DNA of 64,000 bases, from contig JACPMX010000014.1 in NCBI GenBank assembly GCA_016185755.1, forward strand, positions 117,868 through 181,867, read 5' to 3'. The stretch is from Candidatus Woesearchaeota archaeon (GTDB lineage Archaea; Nanobdellota; Nanobdellia; Woesearchaeales; GW2011-AR4). A model generated the notes under the pieces. That model had not been told where the DNA came from. It saw only the letters and a list, made by a program, of their open reading frames with translations, and ran no database searches. Within the stretch, counting starts at the first letter, position 1. Every line of letters starts with the position of its first letter. A program made the translations under genes and the position numbers. This document shows positions 3,786-53,437 of this stretch, in pieces.

Positions 3786-3811
3786 TTTGAAGATTTTATA
3801 ATAAAACTTTA

Positions 3812-3886
3812 AATCCGCCGCTATGCGGCCAAAATTACACTCGGCGAAAATTTTCCTGCCAATAATTTTCGCCTCGGACTATTCAA
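3812..3886 (-). repeat. Interspersed ~70-nt hairpin element, copy 1 (inverted orientation)
   Basis: Reverse complement reads ATAGTCCGAGGCGAA..TGGCAGGAAA..CCGAGTGTAATTTTG-GCCGC ATA GCGGC-GGATTTAAAG; matches the other four copies. Confidence 0.6.
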
Positions 3887-3900
3887 TATAATGAATAAAT

Positions 3901-3972
3901 TGGCGAGGAGTCGCGTGTGGCAGACAGCGACGACGAGCACTAATTATTGTCCGTAGGACAGATTAAGAATCC
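3901..3972 (+). repeat. Interspersed ~70-nt hairpin element, copy 2
   Basis: GGCGAGG..TGGCAGACAG..GAGCACTAATTATTG-GTCC GTA GGAC-AGATTAAGAATCC; forms an inverted pair with copy 1 about 25 nt upstream of rps27ae. Confidence 0.6.
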
Positions 3973-3996
3973 AATTTAACAAAACATAAAACAAAA

Positions 3997-6591: not shown

Positions 6592-6686
6592 TTTGATTTT
6601 TTTAAATTTATTTTTCGTTATTGAGTTTTTTGTTGTTTTTAATTGAATTTATTTTATTGGATTTTTTGTTAATGTTTTTAATTTTT

Positions 6687-6733
6687 TAATCCGCCTACGG
6701 CGCATTTTAGGCTCGCTCATTAGCTCGCCTATT
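6687..6733 (-). repeat. Interspersed hairpin element, copy 3 (short form)
   Basis: Reverse complement AAATAGGCGAGCTAATGAGCGAGCCTAAAATG-CGCC GTA GGCG-GATTAAAA; the ATAGGCGAG box overlaps the rpl1 TAG stop codon. Confidence 0.5.
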
Positions 6734-7412
6734 TATTGGCCTCTTTTTCTATCTCCAGCTTTTCCCCTACCTTGACTGGCTTGCCCATTGTCAGCTTCAC
6801 ATAAATGTCCTTTATGTTGTGCTTTTCATTTGGCAGCGCATGGATCACCGAATTGTAGACGGTCAGCGCATTCTCCGCTATGTCGCTTGCATTCATGTCC
6901 TCTGTTCCAATCGGGACCTGTATCAAAGGCGCTGTCTTTGCGTTTGCCCTTACAGTTCTCTGCAGCTTTTCATACAAGGGCCTTAAGTTTGCGTTCGGCG
7001 CCACCACATTTCCAGACTTCGGGTTCGGCATCTTCCCTCTGGTGCCGAATATCCTTCCAAATGATGTTGCAACCTTCGGCATTATGTTTGCCTGCGCAAT
7101 GAAGAAGTCAAAGCTGTTTGCTATCTTTTTTGCCTCTTTCTTACCCTTGTGCCTCTCAAAATCATCAGACATTATCACAGAATCGCACACATTCTTTGCC
7201 TGCTCGGCAAGCTCTGCAGCCACTAAAGCGCATACCTTGACTTTTTTGCCCCTTGAATGCGGCAAAGTCACAAAAACATCCACCTGGTGCTCTGGCTTCT
7301 TCAGGTCAAGCCCCCTTAGGTTTATGATTAAGTCAAATGACTGCCTGAAATTCCTTTTATCAGAAATATCCTTTGCCTTTGCTATTGCAGCATTTATTTG
7401 CTCTTTGTCCAT
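6729..7412 (-). CDS. rpl1: 50S ribosomal protein L1
   Basis: 227 aa, uL1 family; rpl1-rpl10-rpl12 order is conserved. No rpl11 lies upstream. Confidence 0.9.
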   Translation of the reverse strand: MDKEQINAAIAKAKDISDKRNFRQSFDLIINLRGLDLKKPEHQVDVFVTLPHSRGKKVKVCALVAAELAEQAKNVCDSVIMSDDFERHKGKKEAKKIANSFDFFIAQANIMPKVATSFGRIFGTRGKMPNPKSGNVVAPNANLRPLYEKLQRTVRANAKTAPLIQVPIGTEDMNASDIAENALTVYNSVIHALPNEKHNIKDIYVKLTMGKPVKVGEKLEIEKEANK

Positions 7413-8511: not shown

Positions 8512-8721
8512 CATGGCATTAGCATGGTAAGGCAGAATAAAAGATTATCGTGGCATATTTCAATAATTCCACAACCAGCGCAAATCTTTAAAGTCCTAAA
8601 AAATGCTTGGTATTTTTGGGAACTTGAACTCTGTTCAAGTATTTGCTGGGCTTTGAAAATTCTTTGAATTTTCAAAACCTTTATAAACATAATTTATCCC
8701 TCTTTCCAAAGGGGGTGTTTT

Positions 8722-18378: not shown

Positions 18379-18823
18379 AGAATCCGGCAGTTTTTGTGTC
18401 GAACTTCCAGTCTTCTGATACTCTTCCGCTCCTTTTGTAGTATTTTGTAAGCCGGTTTATCTTTGACTCTGTAAGCATAAGGCCTCTTGCAGCAGTCTCG
18501 TCATGCCTGTTTGCCTCGATGTGCTTCATTATGGCTGCATACCTCCTGAACAACGCAACCAAATCCTCCGGTATCTCCGGCATAATCTTTTTTTCCTTCA
18601 GTATTGCGCTTATTGATTTGCCGCAAAGGGCGAGAACGCTCGGAATGCCATAGACATCCCTCAGCATGATGCCTATCTGTGAGTTGTTTTTGCCGTCTTT
18701 TGCAAGCTTCGCTATCAGAAGCTCGACTTCTTTTGCCTTGTACCTTATCCATGAAGGCGAGGTCTTCTTTGCAGGCTTCTTGGAGCCGTGCTTTCCCCTC
18801 TTCCTGGAGTGCATTCGTGCCAT
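18368..18823 (-). CDS. rps15: 30S ribosomal protein S15 (uS15/S13e)
   Basis: Real start MARMHSRKRGKHGS...; archaeal uS15. The supplied ORF extends upstream into the leader. Confidence 0.8.
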   Translation of the reverse strand: MARMHSRKRGKHGSKKPAKKTSPSWIRYKAKEVELLIAKLAKDGKNNSQIGIMLRDVYGIPSVLALCGKSISAILKEKKIMPEIPEDLVALFRRYAAIMKHIEANRHDETAARGLMLTESKINRLTKYYKRSGRVSEDWKFDTKTAGFFSE

Positions 18824-18854
18824 TTTTGTTATTTTATTTTGATTTTTATTTAAT

Positions 18855-18927
18855 TTCAATCTGTTGCTTCGCAACATTAATTTGTGCTCGGGCTCACTTT
18901 CCTGCCATATCGTTCGCCCTCGCCTAT
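18855..18927 (-). repeat. Interspersed ~70-nt hairpin element, copy 4 (in rps15 5' leader region)
   Basis: Reverse complement ATAGGCGAGGGCGAACGATATGGCAGGAAAGTGAGCCCGAGCACAAATTAATG-GTTGC GAA GCAAC-AGATTGAAATT; ends about 40 nt before the rps15 ATG. Confidence 0.6.
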
Positions 18928-19028
18928 ACATTAAAAACTGGAAGAACAAAGTTTGTCATCCAGCATAGCCAAGCTGTTATACCGGGCTATCTTTCAATTA
19001 AATGGAATATTGGATGATTTATAAATCT

Positions 19029-19319
19029 TTACTTTGCATCCTCAATTCGTATAATGTGGTAGCCGAACTGCGTCTTTACAGGACCTAGTATGGCTCCCTT
19101 GCTGCCGTTAAAGCATGCATTCTCAAACTCCCTGACCATTTGGCCTTTCCTGAACCATCCCAAATTCCCTCCTTTTTTCCGGGAAGGGCACAATGATTTT
19201 TCCATGGCCACATCTTCAAATTTCTTTCCATGGGTTACATCATAGAGCGCCACGTTGGCATCCTGCTCTGTCTTCAGCAGAATATGCGATGCATTCACTT
19301 GGCTTGGCATTTTTGACAT
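19029..19319 (-). CDS. Parvulin-type peptidyl-prolyl cis-trans isomerase (PpiC)
   Basis: 97 aa from MSKMPSQVNASHILL...GGNLGWFRKGQMV...GYHIIRIE. The supplied 150-aa ORF runs upstream through a tRNA gene and is over-extended. Confidence 0.75.
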   Translation of the reverse strand: MSKMPSQVNASHILLKTEQDANVALYDVTHGKKFEDVAMEKSLCPSRKKGGNLGWFRKGQMVREFENACFNGSKGAILGPVKTQFGYHIIRIEDAK

Positions 19320-19324
19320 TCCTC

Positions 19325-19355
19325 GGAACGATGAAAAATAGCCCCGGGCAGATTC
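19325..19355 (-). repeat. 31-bp direct repeat duplicating the 3' end plus trailer of tRNA-Gln
   Basis: ggaacgatgaaaaatagccccgggcagattc at 19325-19355 is identical to 19413-19443, which spans the tRNA-Gln T-arm/acceptor 3' strand and 14 nt of trailer. Confidence 0.7.
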
Positions 19356-19426: not shown

Positions 19427-19515
19427 TAGCCCCGGGCAGATTCGAACTGCCGTCAGAGCCTTTCCATTGCACTGCAACCAAAGGGCCCTATGCTTGACCG
19501 CTACACCACGGGGCT
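19427..19515 (-). tRNA. tRNA-Gln(UUG) with 16-nt canonical (37/38) intron
   Basis: Minus-strand acceptor AGCCCCG/CGGGGCT; anticodon stem-loop GGGCC-CUUUGG[intron TTGCAGTGCAATGGAA]A-GGCTC; T arm GGCAG-TTCGAAT-CTGCC; discriminator A. Confidence 0.6.
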
Positions 19516-22673: not shown

Positions 22674-22829
22674 GCAAAACTCACAATCACCCCTTTAGTC
22701 TTTGTGGTGAGATTGTTTCTTTGCCTTCATTAGAAAACCACCCCCAACGTTTTTCATTATGAAGGCAAGCGGTGGCTCAGCAATGAGCCACATTTTTTTA
22801 TTTTGAAATAGTTAGAAATCTACGAATTT

Positions 22830-22900
22830 TTCAATCCGTCGCTTCGCGACATAATCTTGTGCTCAGCAAAATTGATTTCCACTAATTTTGCCTCGCCTAT
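22830..22900 (-). repeat. Interspersed ~70-nt hairpin element, copy 5
   Basis: Reverse complement ATAGGCGAGGCAAAATTAGTGGAAATCAATTTTGCTGAGCACAAGATTATG-GTCGC GAA GCGAC-GGATTGAAAAATT; lies between the convergent ftsZ and nitroreductase genes. Confidence 0.6.
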
Positions 22901-23010
22901 TGATTCAATAAAAATATAAAAAGCGGATTACTTTCTTCTCGTTCCACATCCAAAAGTCGCTTGCCGGAAGTTTTTGAAAATGTTATTCGTATTGAACTTA
23001 GAATTGGATT

Positions 23011-36534: not shown

Positions 36535-36640
36535 CGCGCCGGGGAGGATTCGAATTCGGGATGAAAGAGCAGTTACTCGATCATGCCCCCGGCCTAGAGG
36601 TTAGGAACCTCTCGCTCTATCCAAGCTGAGCTACCGGCGC
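36535..36640 (-). tRNA. tRNA-Arg(CCU) with ~31-nt non-canonical intron in the T-arm
   Basis: Minus-strand acceptor GCGCCGG/CCGGCGC; D arm GCTC/GAGC; anticodon stem-loop AGAGG-TTCCTAA-CCTCT. T stem GGGGG/CCTCC is interrupted by CATGATCGAGTAACTGCTCTTTCATCCCGAA before TTCGAAT; discriminator G. Confidence 0.6.
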
Positions 36641-46827: not shown

Positions 46828-48780
46828 ATGCTTGAATATGTTATTGGAGTCGGCATATCTTCCTTGCTTGCTGCAGTGTTGTTTTCATTCTATATCCTTA
46901 AAAAGCCAACTGGAACAGCCAAAATGCAGGAAATTTCCGAGGCAATACACAAGGGTGCACTTACCTTCTTAAGAAAAGAGTATGAAGTCATAGCAGTTTT
47001 TATTGCTGTTGTGGCATTGATAATGTATGTATTCCTTGAGAACGGCCACAGGCTTGCGGTATCTTTCATCATGGGCGGATTTGCGTCTGCGCTGGCCGGC
47101 AACCTTGGAATGAGGATATCAACAAAATCGAATGCAAGGGCGGCAGAGGCAACAAAATCCCATATAGGGGATGGCCTGAAAGTTGCCTTCTATTCCGGCG
47201 CCGTAATGGGCTTAAGCGTTGTAGGAATAGGCTTGCTCGGAGTTTCAATTTTGTATTTGGTTTTTGACGATCCGAGTATAATATACGGCTTTGGGTTCGG
47301 GGCCTCCTCAATTGCCCTGTTTGCAAGGGTTGGCGGCGGAATTTATACAAAAGCAGCCGATGTCGGAAGTGATTTGGTCGGCAAGGTTGAAAAAGGAATT
47401 CCCGAAGACGACCCAAGAAACCCTGCAGTCATAGCAGACAATGTAGGCGACAATGTGGGGGATGTTGCAGGCATGGGCGCCGACCTCTTTGAAAGCTATG
47501 TGAACAGCATAATAGCGGCAATGGTGATCGGGCTTGTCTTAAGCCAAGGCCACTTAATTTTTCCGCTGGGCCTTGCAGCGTCAGGTATTTTGGCGTCAAT
47601 AATCGGCATGTTTTTTGTAAAGGCAAAGGATGAGAAACATCTTTTTAGGGCATTGAACACAGGTCTGTATACAAGCACAGTTTTGGCTGCGATATTCGCA
47701 TTTATTCTTGTCAAGCACCAGGATCTTGGCATCGGAGTTTTCTACGCAACCTTGTCCGGGTTGATTGTAGGTGTTGTAATAGGCTGGATTACGGAATATT
47801 ACACATCGAACCGCAACAGGCCGACACAAAGCATAGCAATAGCTGCAAAAACAGGGGCTGGAACAAATGTGATACAGGGGCTTGCTGTCGGCATGCTTTC
47901 TACATTAATTCCGGTTGTTTCGGTTTCGATGGCGGTTCTTGTCGCTTACAAGTTTGCTGGTCTTTACGGGATTGCAATTGCAGGAGTGGGCATGCTCACA
48001 ACCCTTGGATTTACTTTGGCAATTGAAACTTATGGCGCTGTTGCCGACAATGCGGCAGGAATTTCGGAAATGGCCGACGTTGGAAAAGATGTGAGGAAAA
48101 AAACCGAAATGCTTGATGCAGTAGGCAACACGACAGCTGCAATAGGGAAAGGATTTGCAATGGGCAGCGCTGCATTGACTGCTCTTGCTCTTTTTGCCAG
48201 CTTCACCCAGATCACGAAAATTGAGGTCATAAGCATTTCAGACCCCAATGTAATTTTTGGGTTATTCATAGGCGGAATGCTTCCTTTCCTGTTCAGCTCT
48301 TTTGCAATGCAGGCTGTCGGAAAAGCGGCGTCAGAGATAGTTGAGGAAGTAAGAAGGCAGTGGAAATCCATAAAAGGATTGGCGCAGGGAAAAGCAAAGC
48401 CTGACTATGAGAAATGCATCGCAATAAGCACCAGAAGCGCCTTGAAGCAGATGACAATTCCTTCCATTCTTGCAATTCTTGCTCCGATACTGATTGGATA
48501 TTTATTCGGTCTCGAAGCCCTTGGAGGCCTGCTTGTCGGCTCGATTGTATCGGGATTTTCGCTTGCGGTTTTCATGGCCAACTCCGGAGGAGCATGGGAC
48601 AATGCGAAGAAATACATAGAGGCTGGAAACCTTGGTGGCAAAGGAAGTTACGCCCACAAGGCCGCTGTTGTAGGAGACACAGTTGGGGACCCGTTCAAGG
48701 ACACAGCAGGGCCTTCATTGAACATATTAATCAAGCTGATGTCCATTGTTGCGATTGTGTTTGTGCCGCTGATTTTATAA
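46828..48780 (+). CDS. hppA: Membrane-bound H+/Na+-translocating pyrophosphatase, predicted K+-dependent type
   Basis: 650 aa; [10 protein letters not shown] motif (Ala at the K+-dependence position); DVGADL and DNVGDNVGD motifs. Confidence 0.9.
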
Positions 48781-51358: not shown

Positions 51359-53437
51359 TTGTTGATGTTCCTAAGCATTGTTATTGTTATAAGTGTTTTG
51401 GCATTGCTGTTTGCAGGCTATCTGGCAAGAGGAGTTCTTAGGAGAGATACCGGAACAGCTGCAATGCAGGAAGTTTCTAATGCAATCAAGATAGGCGCAG
51501 AGGCATTCCTGAAAAGGCAGTACACCACAATAGCGATAATGTCGGCAGCCCTTGCTGTCATCATATATGCCGCTTATGCGTTATTTGGCAATCCGGGCCT
51601 TGGATGGCGCACATCAGTCTCATTTGTCTTTGGAGCAATCAGCTCGGGAATCGCAGGCATTGTGGGCATGTGGATTTCAATAAGGACAAACATCAGGACT
51701 GCAAGCGCTGCAAGAAAAAGCATGAATGACGCTTTTGTAACAGCGTTCAGGGGAGGGGCGGTTTCCGGCATCGTGATAGTTGCGATGTCATTGCTTGGAG
51801 TCGCGCTGATATATTATGTGTTCAGCATCGGCGTTGATCCTAAGGAAGTTCCTTTCCTGATTGTAGGATATGGATTTGGAGCTTCATTTGTAGCTTTGTT
51901 CGCCCAGCTTGGCGGCGGAATTTATACAAAAGCAGCCGATGTCGGAAGTGATTTAGTCGGCAAGATTGAAAAAGGAATTCCCGAAGACGACCCAAGAAAC
52001 CCGGCAGTCATAGCAGACCTTGTCGGAGACAATGTGGGGGATTGTGCTGGCAGGGGCGCTGACCTATTCGAAAGCACAGCTGCTGAAAATATAGGTGCAA
52101 TGATACTTGGTGTTGCCCTCTATCCCATTTTCGGAGTAAAAGGAGTTATGTTCCCTCTTGTTGTAAGGGCATTTGGGCTTGTAGCAACAATAATCGGAAT
52201 AATGACCGTCAAGCTCAGAAACGAAAATGAAAACCCGATGACAGCATTGAACAGGGGATACTACATAACCAGCTTCCTTGCAGCAATTGTATTTTACTTC
52301 ACTACAAAATGGCTTCTCCCAGGCACGGGAAACTGGTTTTTCTTTGCCGGCTTGGTTGGGCTGGCAACGAGCATTTTGATTGTGTGGATAACAGTTTATT
52401 ATACTGAATCAGACCCGTTCTTTTTTAAAAACAGCCCTGTAAGAAAAATTGCAAAAGCATCATTGACAGGTCATGCAACCAACATAATTTCAGGATTTGC
52501 AGTAGCAATGGAAGCAACTGTGCTGCCCGTGATTGTCTTATCATTGGCGCTTCTTTCCTCGTACAAGCTCGGATTGATGAGCGGCGTTGCGCATGGCGGC
52601 TTATACGGAACTGCAATCGCAACAATGGGAATGCTTGCAACAGCAGCTTACATCCTTGCAATGGACAATTTCGGCCCGATAACAGACAATGCCGGCGGAA
52701 TTGCCGTTATGGGCGGGGCTCCAAATGAGGTAAGGAAAAGAACAGACAAGCTTGATGCTGTCGGCAACACAACAAAGGCATTGACAAAAGGCTATGCCAT
52801 AGGAAGCGCCGCATTAGCTGCATTCCTGCTGTTCTCAGCCTATCTTGATGACGTTGCAAAGCATATTGGGGTAAAGGTTGTTTCAGTTGACATTGCAAAA
52901 ATTGATGTATTTGTAGGGGCTTTGATAGGCGCAATGCTTATTTTCCTTTTCAGCGCGTTTGCCATAAGGGCTGTGGGAGACACAGCTTACTCAATAGTAA
53001 ATGAAGTAAGAAGGCAGTGGAAAGCCAAAAAAGGGATAATGACCGGCAAGGAAAAGCCCGACTATGCAAGAGTTGTTGACATTTGCGTCAAGGCTTCTCT
53101 CAAGGAGATGGTTTTGCCCGGATTGGTTGTTGTTGCGGTCACAGTAATTGTTGGAGTTGTCTTGGGATATGAAGCTGCAGCTGCATTTTTGATGGTTGCC
53201 ACAATCACAGGCATTTTGATGGCCCTTCTTCTTAACACAGGCGGAGGAGCATGGGACAATGCGAAGAAGCTCATTGAGGAAGGCGAGCACGGCGGAAAAG
53301 GTTCAGATGCGCACAAGGCAGCTGTCACAGGCGACACAATCGGAGACCCTTTCAAGGACACTGCAGGGCCTTCATTGCACGTTTTGATTAAGCTGTTGAG
53401 CACTATAACTTTGGTTCTTGTGCCGCTGTTTGTGTGA
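51359..53437 (+). CDS. hppA: Membrane-bound pyrophosphatase paralogue, predicted K+-independent type
   Basis: 692 aa; GNTTKALTKG (Lys at the K+-dependence position). Confidence 0.9.
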   Translation: MLMFLSIVIVISVLALLFAGYLARGVLRRDTGTAAMQEVSNAIKIGAEAFLKRQYTTIAIMSAALAVIIYAAYALFGNPGLGWRTSVSFVFGAISSGIAGIVGMWISIRTNIRTASAARKSMNDAFVTAFRGGAVSGIVIVAMSLLGVALIYYVFSIGVDPKEVPFLIVGYGFGASFVALFAQLGGGIYTKAADVGSDLVGKIEKGIPEDDPRNPAVIADLVGDNVGDCAGRGADLFESTAAENIGAMILGVALYPIFGVKGVMFPLVVRAFGLVATIIGIMTVKLRNENENPMTALNRGYYITSFLAAIVFYFTTKWLLPGTGNWFFFAGLVGLATSILIVWITVYYTESDPFFFKNSPVRKIAKASLTGHATNIISGFAVAMEATVLPVIVLSLALLSSYKLGLMSGVAHGGLYGTAIATMGMLATAAYILAMDNFGPITDNAGGIAVMGGAPNEVRKRTDKLDAVGNTTKALTKGYAIGSAALAAFLLFSAYLDDVAKHIGVKVVSVDIAKIDVFVGALIGAMLIFLFSAFAIRAVGDTAYSIVNEVRRQWKAKKGIMTGKEKPDYARVVDICVKASLKEMVLPGLVVVAVTVIVGVVLGYEAAAAFLMVATITGILMALLLNTGGGAWDNAKKLIEEGEHGGKGSDAHKAAVTGDTIGDPFKDTAGPSLHVLIKLLSTITLVLVPLFV

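Follow-up and report, generated by a model that had tools for sequence, protein, structure and literature searches.

Five copies of a structured intergenic repeat of about 85 bases lie in a 64,000-nucleotide (nt) stretch of contig JACPMX010000014.1 (positions 117,868 to 181,867; hereafter the window) from a Candidatus Woesearchaeota archaeon, and they belong to a large, previously undescribed repeat family of the Woesearchaeota, which are DPANN archaea, a group with very small genomes for which hardly any experimental genetics exists. The repeats noticed in a preliminary description of this DNA are real, and the finding is wider than that description had indicated: these are lineage-wide, structured, promoter-linked intergenic repeats with transposon relatives. 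The reading that we develop here, to which we give an even chance, is that the Woesearchaeota-specific repeats are portable "gene fronts". Each unit comprises a 5' AT box (TGAAT-RWATA), a two-hairpin core held by tandem G.A pairs (Y-GA-R) and an outer GC/GC helix, and a 3' box, GGATTGAA, at the place that the transcription factor B recognition element (BRE) takes in leaderless promoters, with a TATA-like AATTTAAAA directly after it and the start codon ca. 30 nt further on. Such a unit would supply, or at least adjoin and complete, the core promoter of the downstream gene, and its hairpins would form in transiently single-stranded or extruded DNA, where a structure-specific factor would bind them and insulate or activate the adjoining promoter.

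A covariance model was trained on 22 related copies, with copy D as the sole member from the window, and was run unfiltered over the whole window. It recovered exactly the five copies of the preliminary description, at the same places and on the same strands (Table 1), and the first match beyond them had an E value of 1.3. Further copies outside the window are plentiful: the model gave 151 matches, of which 150 were aligned, in 736 kb of Woesearchaeota-type contigs. Metagenomes scanned for an exact pattern yielded at least 120 loci, nearly all of them true copies, and a scan of genome contigs returned true copies at 7 of 120 loci among the matches listed, the rest being mostly chance matches in bacteria. 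Six of these seven loci are labelled Woesearchaeota; the seventh, on a contig of 31% G+C labelled Methanosarcinales, is probably misbinned. The pattern used for the genome scan was G+C-rich, so the taxonomic range of the family is known only roughly. Homologues of the S15 protein encoded in the window carry the names Candidatus Woesearchaeota or Nanoarchaeota, and such contigs share the gene order of the window; look-ups of the exact S27ae and S15 proteins returned no record. A scan of IMG/VR viral contigs gave no matches, and a viral origin was rejected. Rfam 15 at the gathering threshold found one tRNA in the whole window and no family matching the repeat copies, permissive Rfam scans over copies A/B, D, and E gave chance-level matches only (E >= 0.5), and literature searches turned up no description of the family.

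Read on its own strand, the unit runs from the AT box, (T)TGAAT-RWATA, through GGCGA, a hairpin (P2) with UGGCAG in its loop, GAGCAC, a 7-nt A/U linker, and a smaller hairpin (P3) to the tail GGATTGAA. The boxes thus stand in the order first reported. The preliminary description had P3; absent from it was P2, a second and larger covarying hairpin of 28-32 nt that encloses the TGGCAG box. Two sheared-type tandem G.A/A.G steps, each strand reading 5'-C-GA-G, close P2 together with an outer helix of 2 bp (GC/GC). The sequence of P2 is free and its length is 30-31 nt in 85 of 111 copies, while P3 may be anything from 9 to 24 nt long. Of 45 distinct P3 hairpins, 29 have a GAA loop and 42 close their loop with a C-G pair.

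The P3 stems of the five window copies differ yet pair, as originally noted (GTTGC/GCAAC, GTCGC/GCGAC, GCCGC/GCGGC, CGCC/GGCG, and GTCC/GGAC), and this compensatory covariation persists once many more copies are aligned. In a gapless alignment of 22 sequences, 92.7% of the stem cells are paired, compared to 69.4% after shuffling and 31-44% when the partners are slid, and 96 cells carry double changes, compared to 30 in shuffles. Among 148 distinct copies, the paired cells amount to 81.8% (63.6% shuffled) and the double-change cells to 543 (157 shuffled). Counted over the first nine positions in 109 distinct P2 stems, there are 855 Watson-Crick pairs, 113 G.A/A.G pairs, 6 G.U pairs, and 1 A.C pair. 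An internal symmetric GA/GA step, at varying depth, occurs in 37 of these 109 P2 stems and in 8 of 45 P3 stems; TC/TC occurs in none. Because GA/GA recurs and its mirror TC/TC never does, a duplex protein site is impossible as the source of the pattern, which bears out the earlier proposal of a fold on one strand. For both hairpins, the folding strand has the same sense as the downstream gene.

Several known structures were considered and rejected. No covariation supports an outer helix in which the 5' flank (TGAAT) would pair with the linker or tail, TGAAT being constant while the tail changes. The tandem GA steps are symmetric 2x2 loops with Watson-Crick pairs on both sides and no 3-nt bulge, unlike a kink-turn. 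The RUGAUGA/CUGA boxes of box C/D small RNAs are not present in the element, and the ACA that should follow the outer helix of an H/ACA small RNA is missing in copies A and C and in contig L006. Hammerhead and bulge-helix-bulge motifs were ruled out on inspection (no 3-nt bulge, no boxes). The sole likeness to a CRISPR repeat is a small hairpin followed by ATTGAA, and no arrays occur. A replication-origin reading of the P2 loop fails as well, since a likeness to the short form of the origin recognition box (mini-ORB) is confined to copy E and the copies span 20 kb.

The link to promoters comes from the position of the copies relative to genes. A same-strand, ATG-initiated open reading frame (ORF) starts within 120 nt downstream of 67 of the 104 copies with enough downstream sequence, with a sharp mode at 28-39 nt; on the opposite side, which served as the control, this holds for 17 of 99 copies, with a flat distribution (p = 4e-12 for the difference). 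When copies are aligned on the tail, AATTTAAAA comes next and the G+C content stays below ca. 15% to about +35. Element-free genes on the same contigs, aligned on ATG, carry A at -35 to -32 and again at -27 to -24, with T in between at -30 to -28 and T-AAA before the ATG. Because this TATA-like box lies at the distance expected for leaderless mRNAs, we assign these genes a leaderless geometry. With the usual spacer of 29-35 nt, the tail GGATTGAA coincides with the BRE position and the AT box after it with that of the TATA box, from which we infer BRE and TATA function. Where the gene has a Shine-Dalgarno sequence, the distance from the tail is 45-56 nt, leaving a leader of 12-20 nt. The shared promoter module suggested in the preliminary description therefore fits as to position, but the internal AAATTAATG box to which it was tied is not the promoter; the TATA-like box comes after the last box. 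AAATTAATG is the linker before P3, and because P3 varies from 9 to 24 nt, it stands at no fixed distance from anything downstream. The same range excludes the linker (AAATTAAT) as a TATA box with GATTGAA as initiator. Nor can the 5' AT box be the TATA box of a transcript of the element itself, as the start would land inside P2; it may serve divergent genes instead, eight of which have their ATG 15-43 nt away.

The same geometry could, in principle, describe a structured 5' mRNA leader, either regulatory or ribosome-recruiting, with an unstructured, A-rich stretch between it and the AUG. The shared orientation with the downstream gene, the narrow distance to the AUG, and the conserved AAA before it are all consistent with such a leader, and at S15 a canonical promoter ca. 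190 nt upstream could produce one. However, no TATA signal is conserved at a fixed distance 5' of the core, and the upstream space is occupied by the partner copy wherever copies are paired. Element-free genes share the AAA-ATG context together with a TATA box at -30 to -23, leaderless mRNAs being the norm, and genes with Shine-Dalgarno sequences lie 14-20 nt further off, as expected if the start site rather than the AUG is fixed. Copy E, moreover, fronts a conserved non-coding block. We consider a leader very improbable, and the 5' regulatory leader RNA entertained in the preliminary description is further contradicted by pairs and divergent intergenic regions, which are too tight for a promoter upstream of the element. 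More improbable still is that each copy is a stand-alone small RNA gene of ca. 70 nt. Two stable hairpins with conserved single-stranded motifs would suit such a gene, and no gene is in reach downstream of window copy A or of L012:17517-17609; yet upstream of the copies no promoter lies at a suitable distance, the tail is not followed by a T-run terminator on the sense strand, and the tight coupling to start codons would stay unexplained.

An association with ribosomal-protein genes had also been proposed, and it turns out to be an accident of the window, because the genes downstream of the copies are diverse housekeeping genes. Those identified with Pfam encode S15, S13, S7, S27ae, RNA polymerase A' and B'', the pyruvate dehydrogenase (PDH) subunits E2 and E1beta, a class II tRNA synthetase, Sec61beta, and dCMP deaminase; L39e, RtcB, CTP synthase, and GMP synthase were recognized by eye only. 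No tRNA genes were found downstream of copies. Within the window, copies B and D do stand immediately upstream of rps27ae (29 nt) and rps15 (31 nt), as stated previously, but copy C is 93 nt from the ATG of rpl10/P0. An autoregulatory leader of ribosomal-protein mRNAs was rejected, since the element also fronts RNA polymerase, PDH, Sec61beta, tRNA synthetase, and deaminase genes and lies upstream of the TATA position. Copies are found within classical operons, between S12 and S7, rpoB' and rpoB'', L1 and P0, and S24e and S27ae (identified partly by reading the sequences), and the genes of these operons appear to be expressed singly in this lineage, as leaderless mRNAs.

The copies are old. Orthologues of copy D stand upstream of S15 in seven related contigs (L001, L004, L006, L010, L012, L013, and L150), whose S15 proteins are 75-86% identical where recorded. 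Among these contigs, the stems of the S15-front copies are wholly different, whereas the boxes, loop, and length are conserved, and stem diversity within one genome equals that among the S15-locus copies. Because the stems are diverse while pairing, loops, and length are kept, each copy has been under long selection, unlike the members of a young repeat family. Old copies, the one before S15 among them, have been retained at one locus in different species.

Adjacent copies follow a strict rule of orientation, being head-to-head in 29 cases and tail-to-tail in none (p = 4e-9), so that the head-to-head pair previously noticed between rps24e and rps27ae represents a recurrent, exclusively divergent architecture. 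In pairs with both members displayed, one is of the main type (GGCGAGG..GAGCAC) and the other a variant (TYCGAGG..GAG-TGT/ACA/TCT). The usual layout is the stop codon of gene 1, a gap of 1-44 nt in the closest cases, the minus-strand member, the plus-strand member, a TATA box, and, ca. 32 nt on, the ATG of gene 2; the order rps24e, A, B, rps27ae in the window is exactly this layout. Bidirectional promoters were excluded as an explanation of the pairs, gene starts on both sides being found in 0 of 29.

Certain pairs are part of mobile units. An identical copy with a 34-nt end module (...CTTCAGAAAGCTAAAGTATTAC), followed by unrelated DNA, is shared by at least 11 contigs of one population from groundwater or wastewater, and many contigs start ca. 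20 nt before an identical copy, as assemblies do at repeats. The two-ended units, 230-311 bp long, consist of a head-to-head pair with an end module on each side and imperfect inverted termini. The termini of the Y end modules, GTTATTATTTAGC... and ...GCTAAAGTATTAC, match imperfectly, and such ends were not seen for A/B or for solitary copies. Perfect 8-bp direct repeats flank units in L158 (TTATAAGT), L162 (GTAAATTA), L218 (GAAATTTC), and L165/L135 (TTTAATCC), and 7 of 8 positions match in L188. Over 28 pairs as a whole, duplications number 5, compared to 7.2 +/- 2.2 in shuffled controls, and in pairs without end modules they do not exceed the control. Of 11 insertions of the mobile form (related loci L158, L162, L218, L188, L246, and L165/L135), 8 end 14 nt before a resident TATA box, which suggests that integration is directed at the upstream edge of promoters. 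Paired units with end modules are MITE-like transposons (MITE, miniature inverted-repeat transposable element). Their 8-bp duplications suggest a cut-and-paste enzyme of the DDE type, not one of the HUH class. A DDE gene of the IS240 type is present in L013/L014. The MITE-like repeat proposed in the preliminary description is thus borne out for related pairs with 8-bp target duplications but not for the window pair A/B.

These units raise the possibility that the family is purely selfish DNA, made up of MITEs and their decayed halves, in which closeness to TATA boxes reflects target choice and the hairpins serve transposition or are by-products. The 8-bp duplications and imperfect terminal inverted repeats of pairs with Y end modules, the identical copies at 11 or more loci with 8 of 11 ending 14 nt before a resident TATA box, the contig breaks in the repeat, and the invariably head-to-head arrangement of adjacent copies would all be expected of such DNA. 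Against it, stems that have diverged within a genome still pair and keep their loop motifs and P2 length, indicating long purifying selection on each copy, and all related contigs examined have kept the S15 copy in place. End modules and duplications are missing in most pairs and in all solitary copies. Moreover, archaeal genomes of this kind are thought to be strongly reduced, and the 64-kb window nevertheless holds about five copies. We therefore regard a purely selfish nature as quite unlikely.

G.U pairs make up 0.7% of the standard pairs in the element stems, compared to 10.3% in tRNAs of the same contigs (p = 4.5e-12). The sequence d(GCGAAGC) and GNA triloops form hyperstable DNA minihairpins, and Y-GA-R tandem mismatches are especially stable in DNA. 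Because the hairpins fold on the coding strand only and with DNA-type pairing rules, single-stranded or extruded DNA is favored, and we lean modestly toward that form over RNA. A more specific version of the gene-front reading, which we hold to be unlikely, makes the hairpins a DNA device that would be extruded on the coding strand by negative supercoiling behind a firing promoter or by passage of a replication fork. A structure-specific factor would read the hairpins and tune the activity or insulation of the adjoining leaderless promoter, the whole being a mobile promoter whose integration is directed to the upstream edge of TATA boxes. Such a device would be an archaeal counterpart of far-upstream-element mechanosensing.

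An RNA role we judge to be rather unlikely. The core would then be RNA at the end of the upstream transcript, where stable hairpins would stop, mark, or protect the 3' end and insulate the next promoter, much as repetitive extragenic palindromic (REP) sequences of E. coli protect 3' ends from exonucleases. Variable stems with conserved loops and junctions are the pattern of a functional RNA. Copy C opens within the rpl1 stop codon, so that at least its 5' edge is transcribed, and the upstream gene is co-directional for the promoter-side member of most pairs as well as for many solitary copies. At S15, a conserved RNA-like module with a TTTATAAA promoter would read into the copy in relatives without a T run. 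However, the upstream gene is divergent in 21 of 73 solitary copies, 8 of which have its ATG 15-43 nt from their 5' box, and a sense transcript is not to be expected at such sites; G.U pairs are nearly absent, unlike in the local tRNAs; T runs or terminator-like hairpins precede many cores and should end read-through; and the gene-proximal member of a pair would be read antisense, which turns its GA/GA steps into UC/UC mismatches.

Returning to the gene-front reading, several observations weigh against it. The BRE and TATA box are assigned from geometry and composition, copies B and E have poor TATA matches right after the tail, and copy C lies 93 nt from the next ATG. The upstream gene is co-directional in 52 of 73 solitary copies, so that the core could be read through and act as RNA, and both the few G.U pairs and the triloops are compatible with RNA too. 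Nearest-neighbor energies with DNA and RNA parameters separated neither the strands nor the two types of molecule. One member of a pair usually points at the 3' end of a gene, where a promoter is needless; because of this, the core must have a role or a history beyond the promoter. The window pair A/B shows no recognizable end modules or target duplication. Finally, no transposase or hairpin-binding protein was identified, and the autonomous element was not systematically sought; we infer the partner protein from the folding pattern.

Table 1. Repeat copies and adjoining segments in the window. Covariance-model matches are on the same strand as the copy.
Feature	Positions	Strand	Parts	Model match (E value)
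Copy A, variant type (TCCGAGG ... GAGTGT)	3809..3890	-	5' AT box 3881-3890; P2 3843-3873; P3 3817-3829; tail GGATTTAA 3809-3816	3804-3895 (8.5e-09)
Copy B, main type, head-to-head partner of A	3887..3967	+	GGCGA 3902-3906; P2 3907-3934 (extra internal tandem GA); GAGCAC 3935-3940; linker 3941-3947; P3 3948-3960; tail GATTAAG 3961-3967	3886-3972 (2.4e-10)
Spacer, copy B to rps27ae ATG (3997)	3968..3996	+	A-rich, 29 nt	
Copy C, short form	6685..6740	-	outer helix UAGGC/GCCUA; P2 cut down to GCU-AAUG-AGC between two GA steps; P3 CGCC-GUA-GGCG; tail GATTAAA	6680-6745 (3.5e-4)
Copy D, reference copy	18855..18938	-	5' AT box 18925-18938; GGCGA 18920-18924; P2 18890-18919 (internal GA/GA, loop UAUGGCAGGAAA); GAGCAC 18884-18889; linker 18877-18883; P3 18862-18876 (holds GCGAAGC); tail GATTGAA 18855-18861	18850-18940 (6.7e-19)
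Spacer, copy D to rps15 ATG (18821-18823)	18824..18854	-	31 nt, ATTAAATAAAAATC...AACAAAA	
Copy E	22830..22911	-	5' AT box 22898-22911; GGCGA 22893-22897; P2 22865-22892 (loop AGUGGAAAUC); GAGCAC 22859-22864; P3 22837-22851 (holds GCGAAGC); tail GATTGAA 22830-22836	22825-22913 (2.6e-18)
Upstream extension of copy E ("class a")	22923..22960	-	hairpin GCGACUUUU...AAAGUAAUCCGC, then T run	

Copy A points at the 3' end of rps24e (stop codon 3783-3785). It is in the spacer after its partner B that the TATA box and the start of a leaderless mRNA would be expected. In copy C, P2 is shortened to 3 bp, and the 5' box overlaps the rpl1 stop codon, TAG (6729-6731); a similar short form follows a nitroreductase gene in L006. 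In the spacer after copy D, ATTAAATA occupies -31 to -24 relative to the rps15 ATG, which is where the TATA box of leaderless genes is placed in this lineage. Copy E stands between a nitroreductase gene and the convergent ftsZ, rather than before a ribosomal-protein gene, and ca. 38 nt upstream of a conserved non-coding block. Its "class a" extension is common to ca. 30 related copies and shows two compensatory changes (GCG/CGC to ACG/CGU and ACUUU/AAAGU to ACCUU/AAGGU); the hairpin looks like a putative terminator of the upstream gene.

Several conserved segments accompany the copies. The block 3' of copy E (ca. 22677-22795, minus strand, convergent with ftsZ) is ca. 115 nt long, highly conserved also in L001, L006, and L238, and without an Rfam match; it opens with an ATG and contains the stems GUGGCUCA/UGAGCCAC and GCCUUCAU/AUGAAGGC. 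It is probably non-coding, because its orthologues differ by compensating 1-nt indels. Upstream of copy D, an apparently structured module (18941-18996, minus strand) is found at every S15 locus examined. It comprises UUGAAAGAUAGCC..GGCUAU followed by CUGGAUGA..UCCAG, with a near-invariant AACNTTTATAAA box 22 nt before it and the promoter TTTATAAA at 19018-19025. Insertions in its first hairpin vary (L004, L010), a T run often follows, and Rfam has no match; the module might encode a small RNA or serve as a leader specific to S15. Two further short modules occur 30-90 nt downstream of copies without a nearby ORF (e.g., L172, L139, L199, and L245; L141, L153, L192, and L203). The first, CAATTACTTATG(T/C)C, is near the predicted start site, the second, CTTCTTGCGCTTGACAATAGGCGCAC, forms a hairpin, and both may be additional small repeat or RNA families. 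At 8612-8695 (minus strand), the model gave a weak match (E 2.6) in which two AT-rich hairpins, GAAAAUUC/GAAUUUUC and CUUGAAC-AGA-GUUCAAG, follow one another as in the family; this could be a distant member or a decayed one.

Other features of the window were recorded in passing. An intron-containing tRNA at 19427-19515 (minus strand) was found by ARAGORN and in the permissive Rfam scan. Its last 38 nt are repeated with 95% identity at 19318-19355, 88 nt downstream, which resembles what an integrated element may leave at its attachment site; in L010 and L013, this neighborhood holds a LAGLIDADG ORF. A 106-nt tRNA match at 36535-36640 (minus strand) was obtained with Rfam only, ARAGORN being negative, and an unusual intron is presumed. 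Two stretches of ca. 1.5 kb (47287-48774 and 51866-53431), 72-85% identical and 4.6 kb apart, are probably tandem paralogous genes.

The family is an abundant and easily recognized sequence that marks the fronts of genes, splits classical operons into single genes, and is under selection as a folded strand. If the promoter reading is true, it would provide a predictor of transcription units for Woesearchaeota genomes and a natural, portable promoter for future genetic tools, and it would be a case of a transposon-borne module that has become part of core gene expression. If the hairpins do act as DNA, they would represent an unusual mode of promoter control in archaea. The breakage of assemblies at the repeat matters for binning and closing these genomes in any case.

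Comparison with known systems places the family between several of them. With archaeal core promoters of the leaderless BRE and TATA type, the 3' box and the AT box after it share the spacing and composition seen for other genes on the same contigs, and the inferred direction of transcription (A-rich box before a T-rich TATA start) agrees with the downstream gene; a 70-bp, strand-specific folded module on the upstream edge of the core is not known from any archaeal promoter, and the literature searches turned up none. Like integron attC sites, the elements are diverse in sequence, conserved in structure, and located at gene borders in one orientation relative to genes. An attC site is read as folded single-stranded DNA of one strand; in the present element one-strand folding is evident and the single-stranded DNA state is predicted. 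However, attC is one long bulged hairpin with pairing ends, R'' and R', placed 3' of mobile cassettes by an integrase, whereas the ends of the present element (TGAAT flank, ATTGA tail) do not covary, its two hairpins stand side by side, and its neighbors are housekeeping genes, and an attC identity was rejected.

The closest known systems are promoter-bearing MITEs, namely Correia elements, and the REP doublets of bacterial interspersed mosaic elements (BIMEs, or REPINs), and the family as a whole is neither. REPs and the present elements alike are strand-specific imperfect palindromes that are intergenic and often stand right after stop codons inside operons. Both also form inverted doublets of two types, the Y and Z REPs of BIMEs and, here, the 29 head-to-head pairs of main and variant type. 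REPs are single palindromes of 20-40 nt with a 5' GTAG that are near-identical within a genome, mobilized by RAYT (HUH) proteins without target duplication, and not fused to promoters. The present element instead has two hairpins and four conserved boxes in ca. 70 nt, with GGCGAGG, GAGCAC, and GGATTGAA in place of a GTAG-type tetranucleotide, and it shows 8-bp duplications in its mobile form and coupling to promoters. The Correia elements of Neisseria (CREE) are MITEs with outward promoters. Like them, the mobile units described here are short, non-autonomous transposons (ca. 100-300 bp) with inverted ends and target duplications that lie near genes, reach many copies per small genome, and contribute promoter elements from their ends to the neighboring gene, the last being a prediction in our case. 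Correia elements, however, are bacterial, with a TA duplication, sigma-70 boxes, and near-identical copies, whereas the present family is archaeal and adjoins leaderless genes of the BRE and TATA type, with 8-bp duplications where these are seen, and consists mostly of solitary half-units, ancient and diverged copies with compensatory changes in two internal hairpins.

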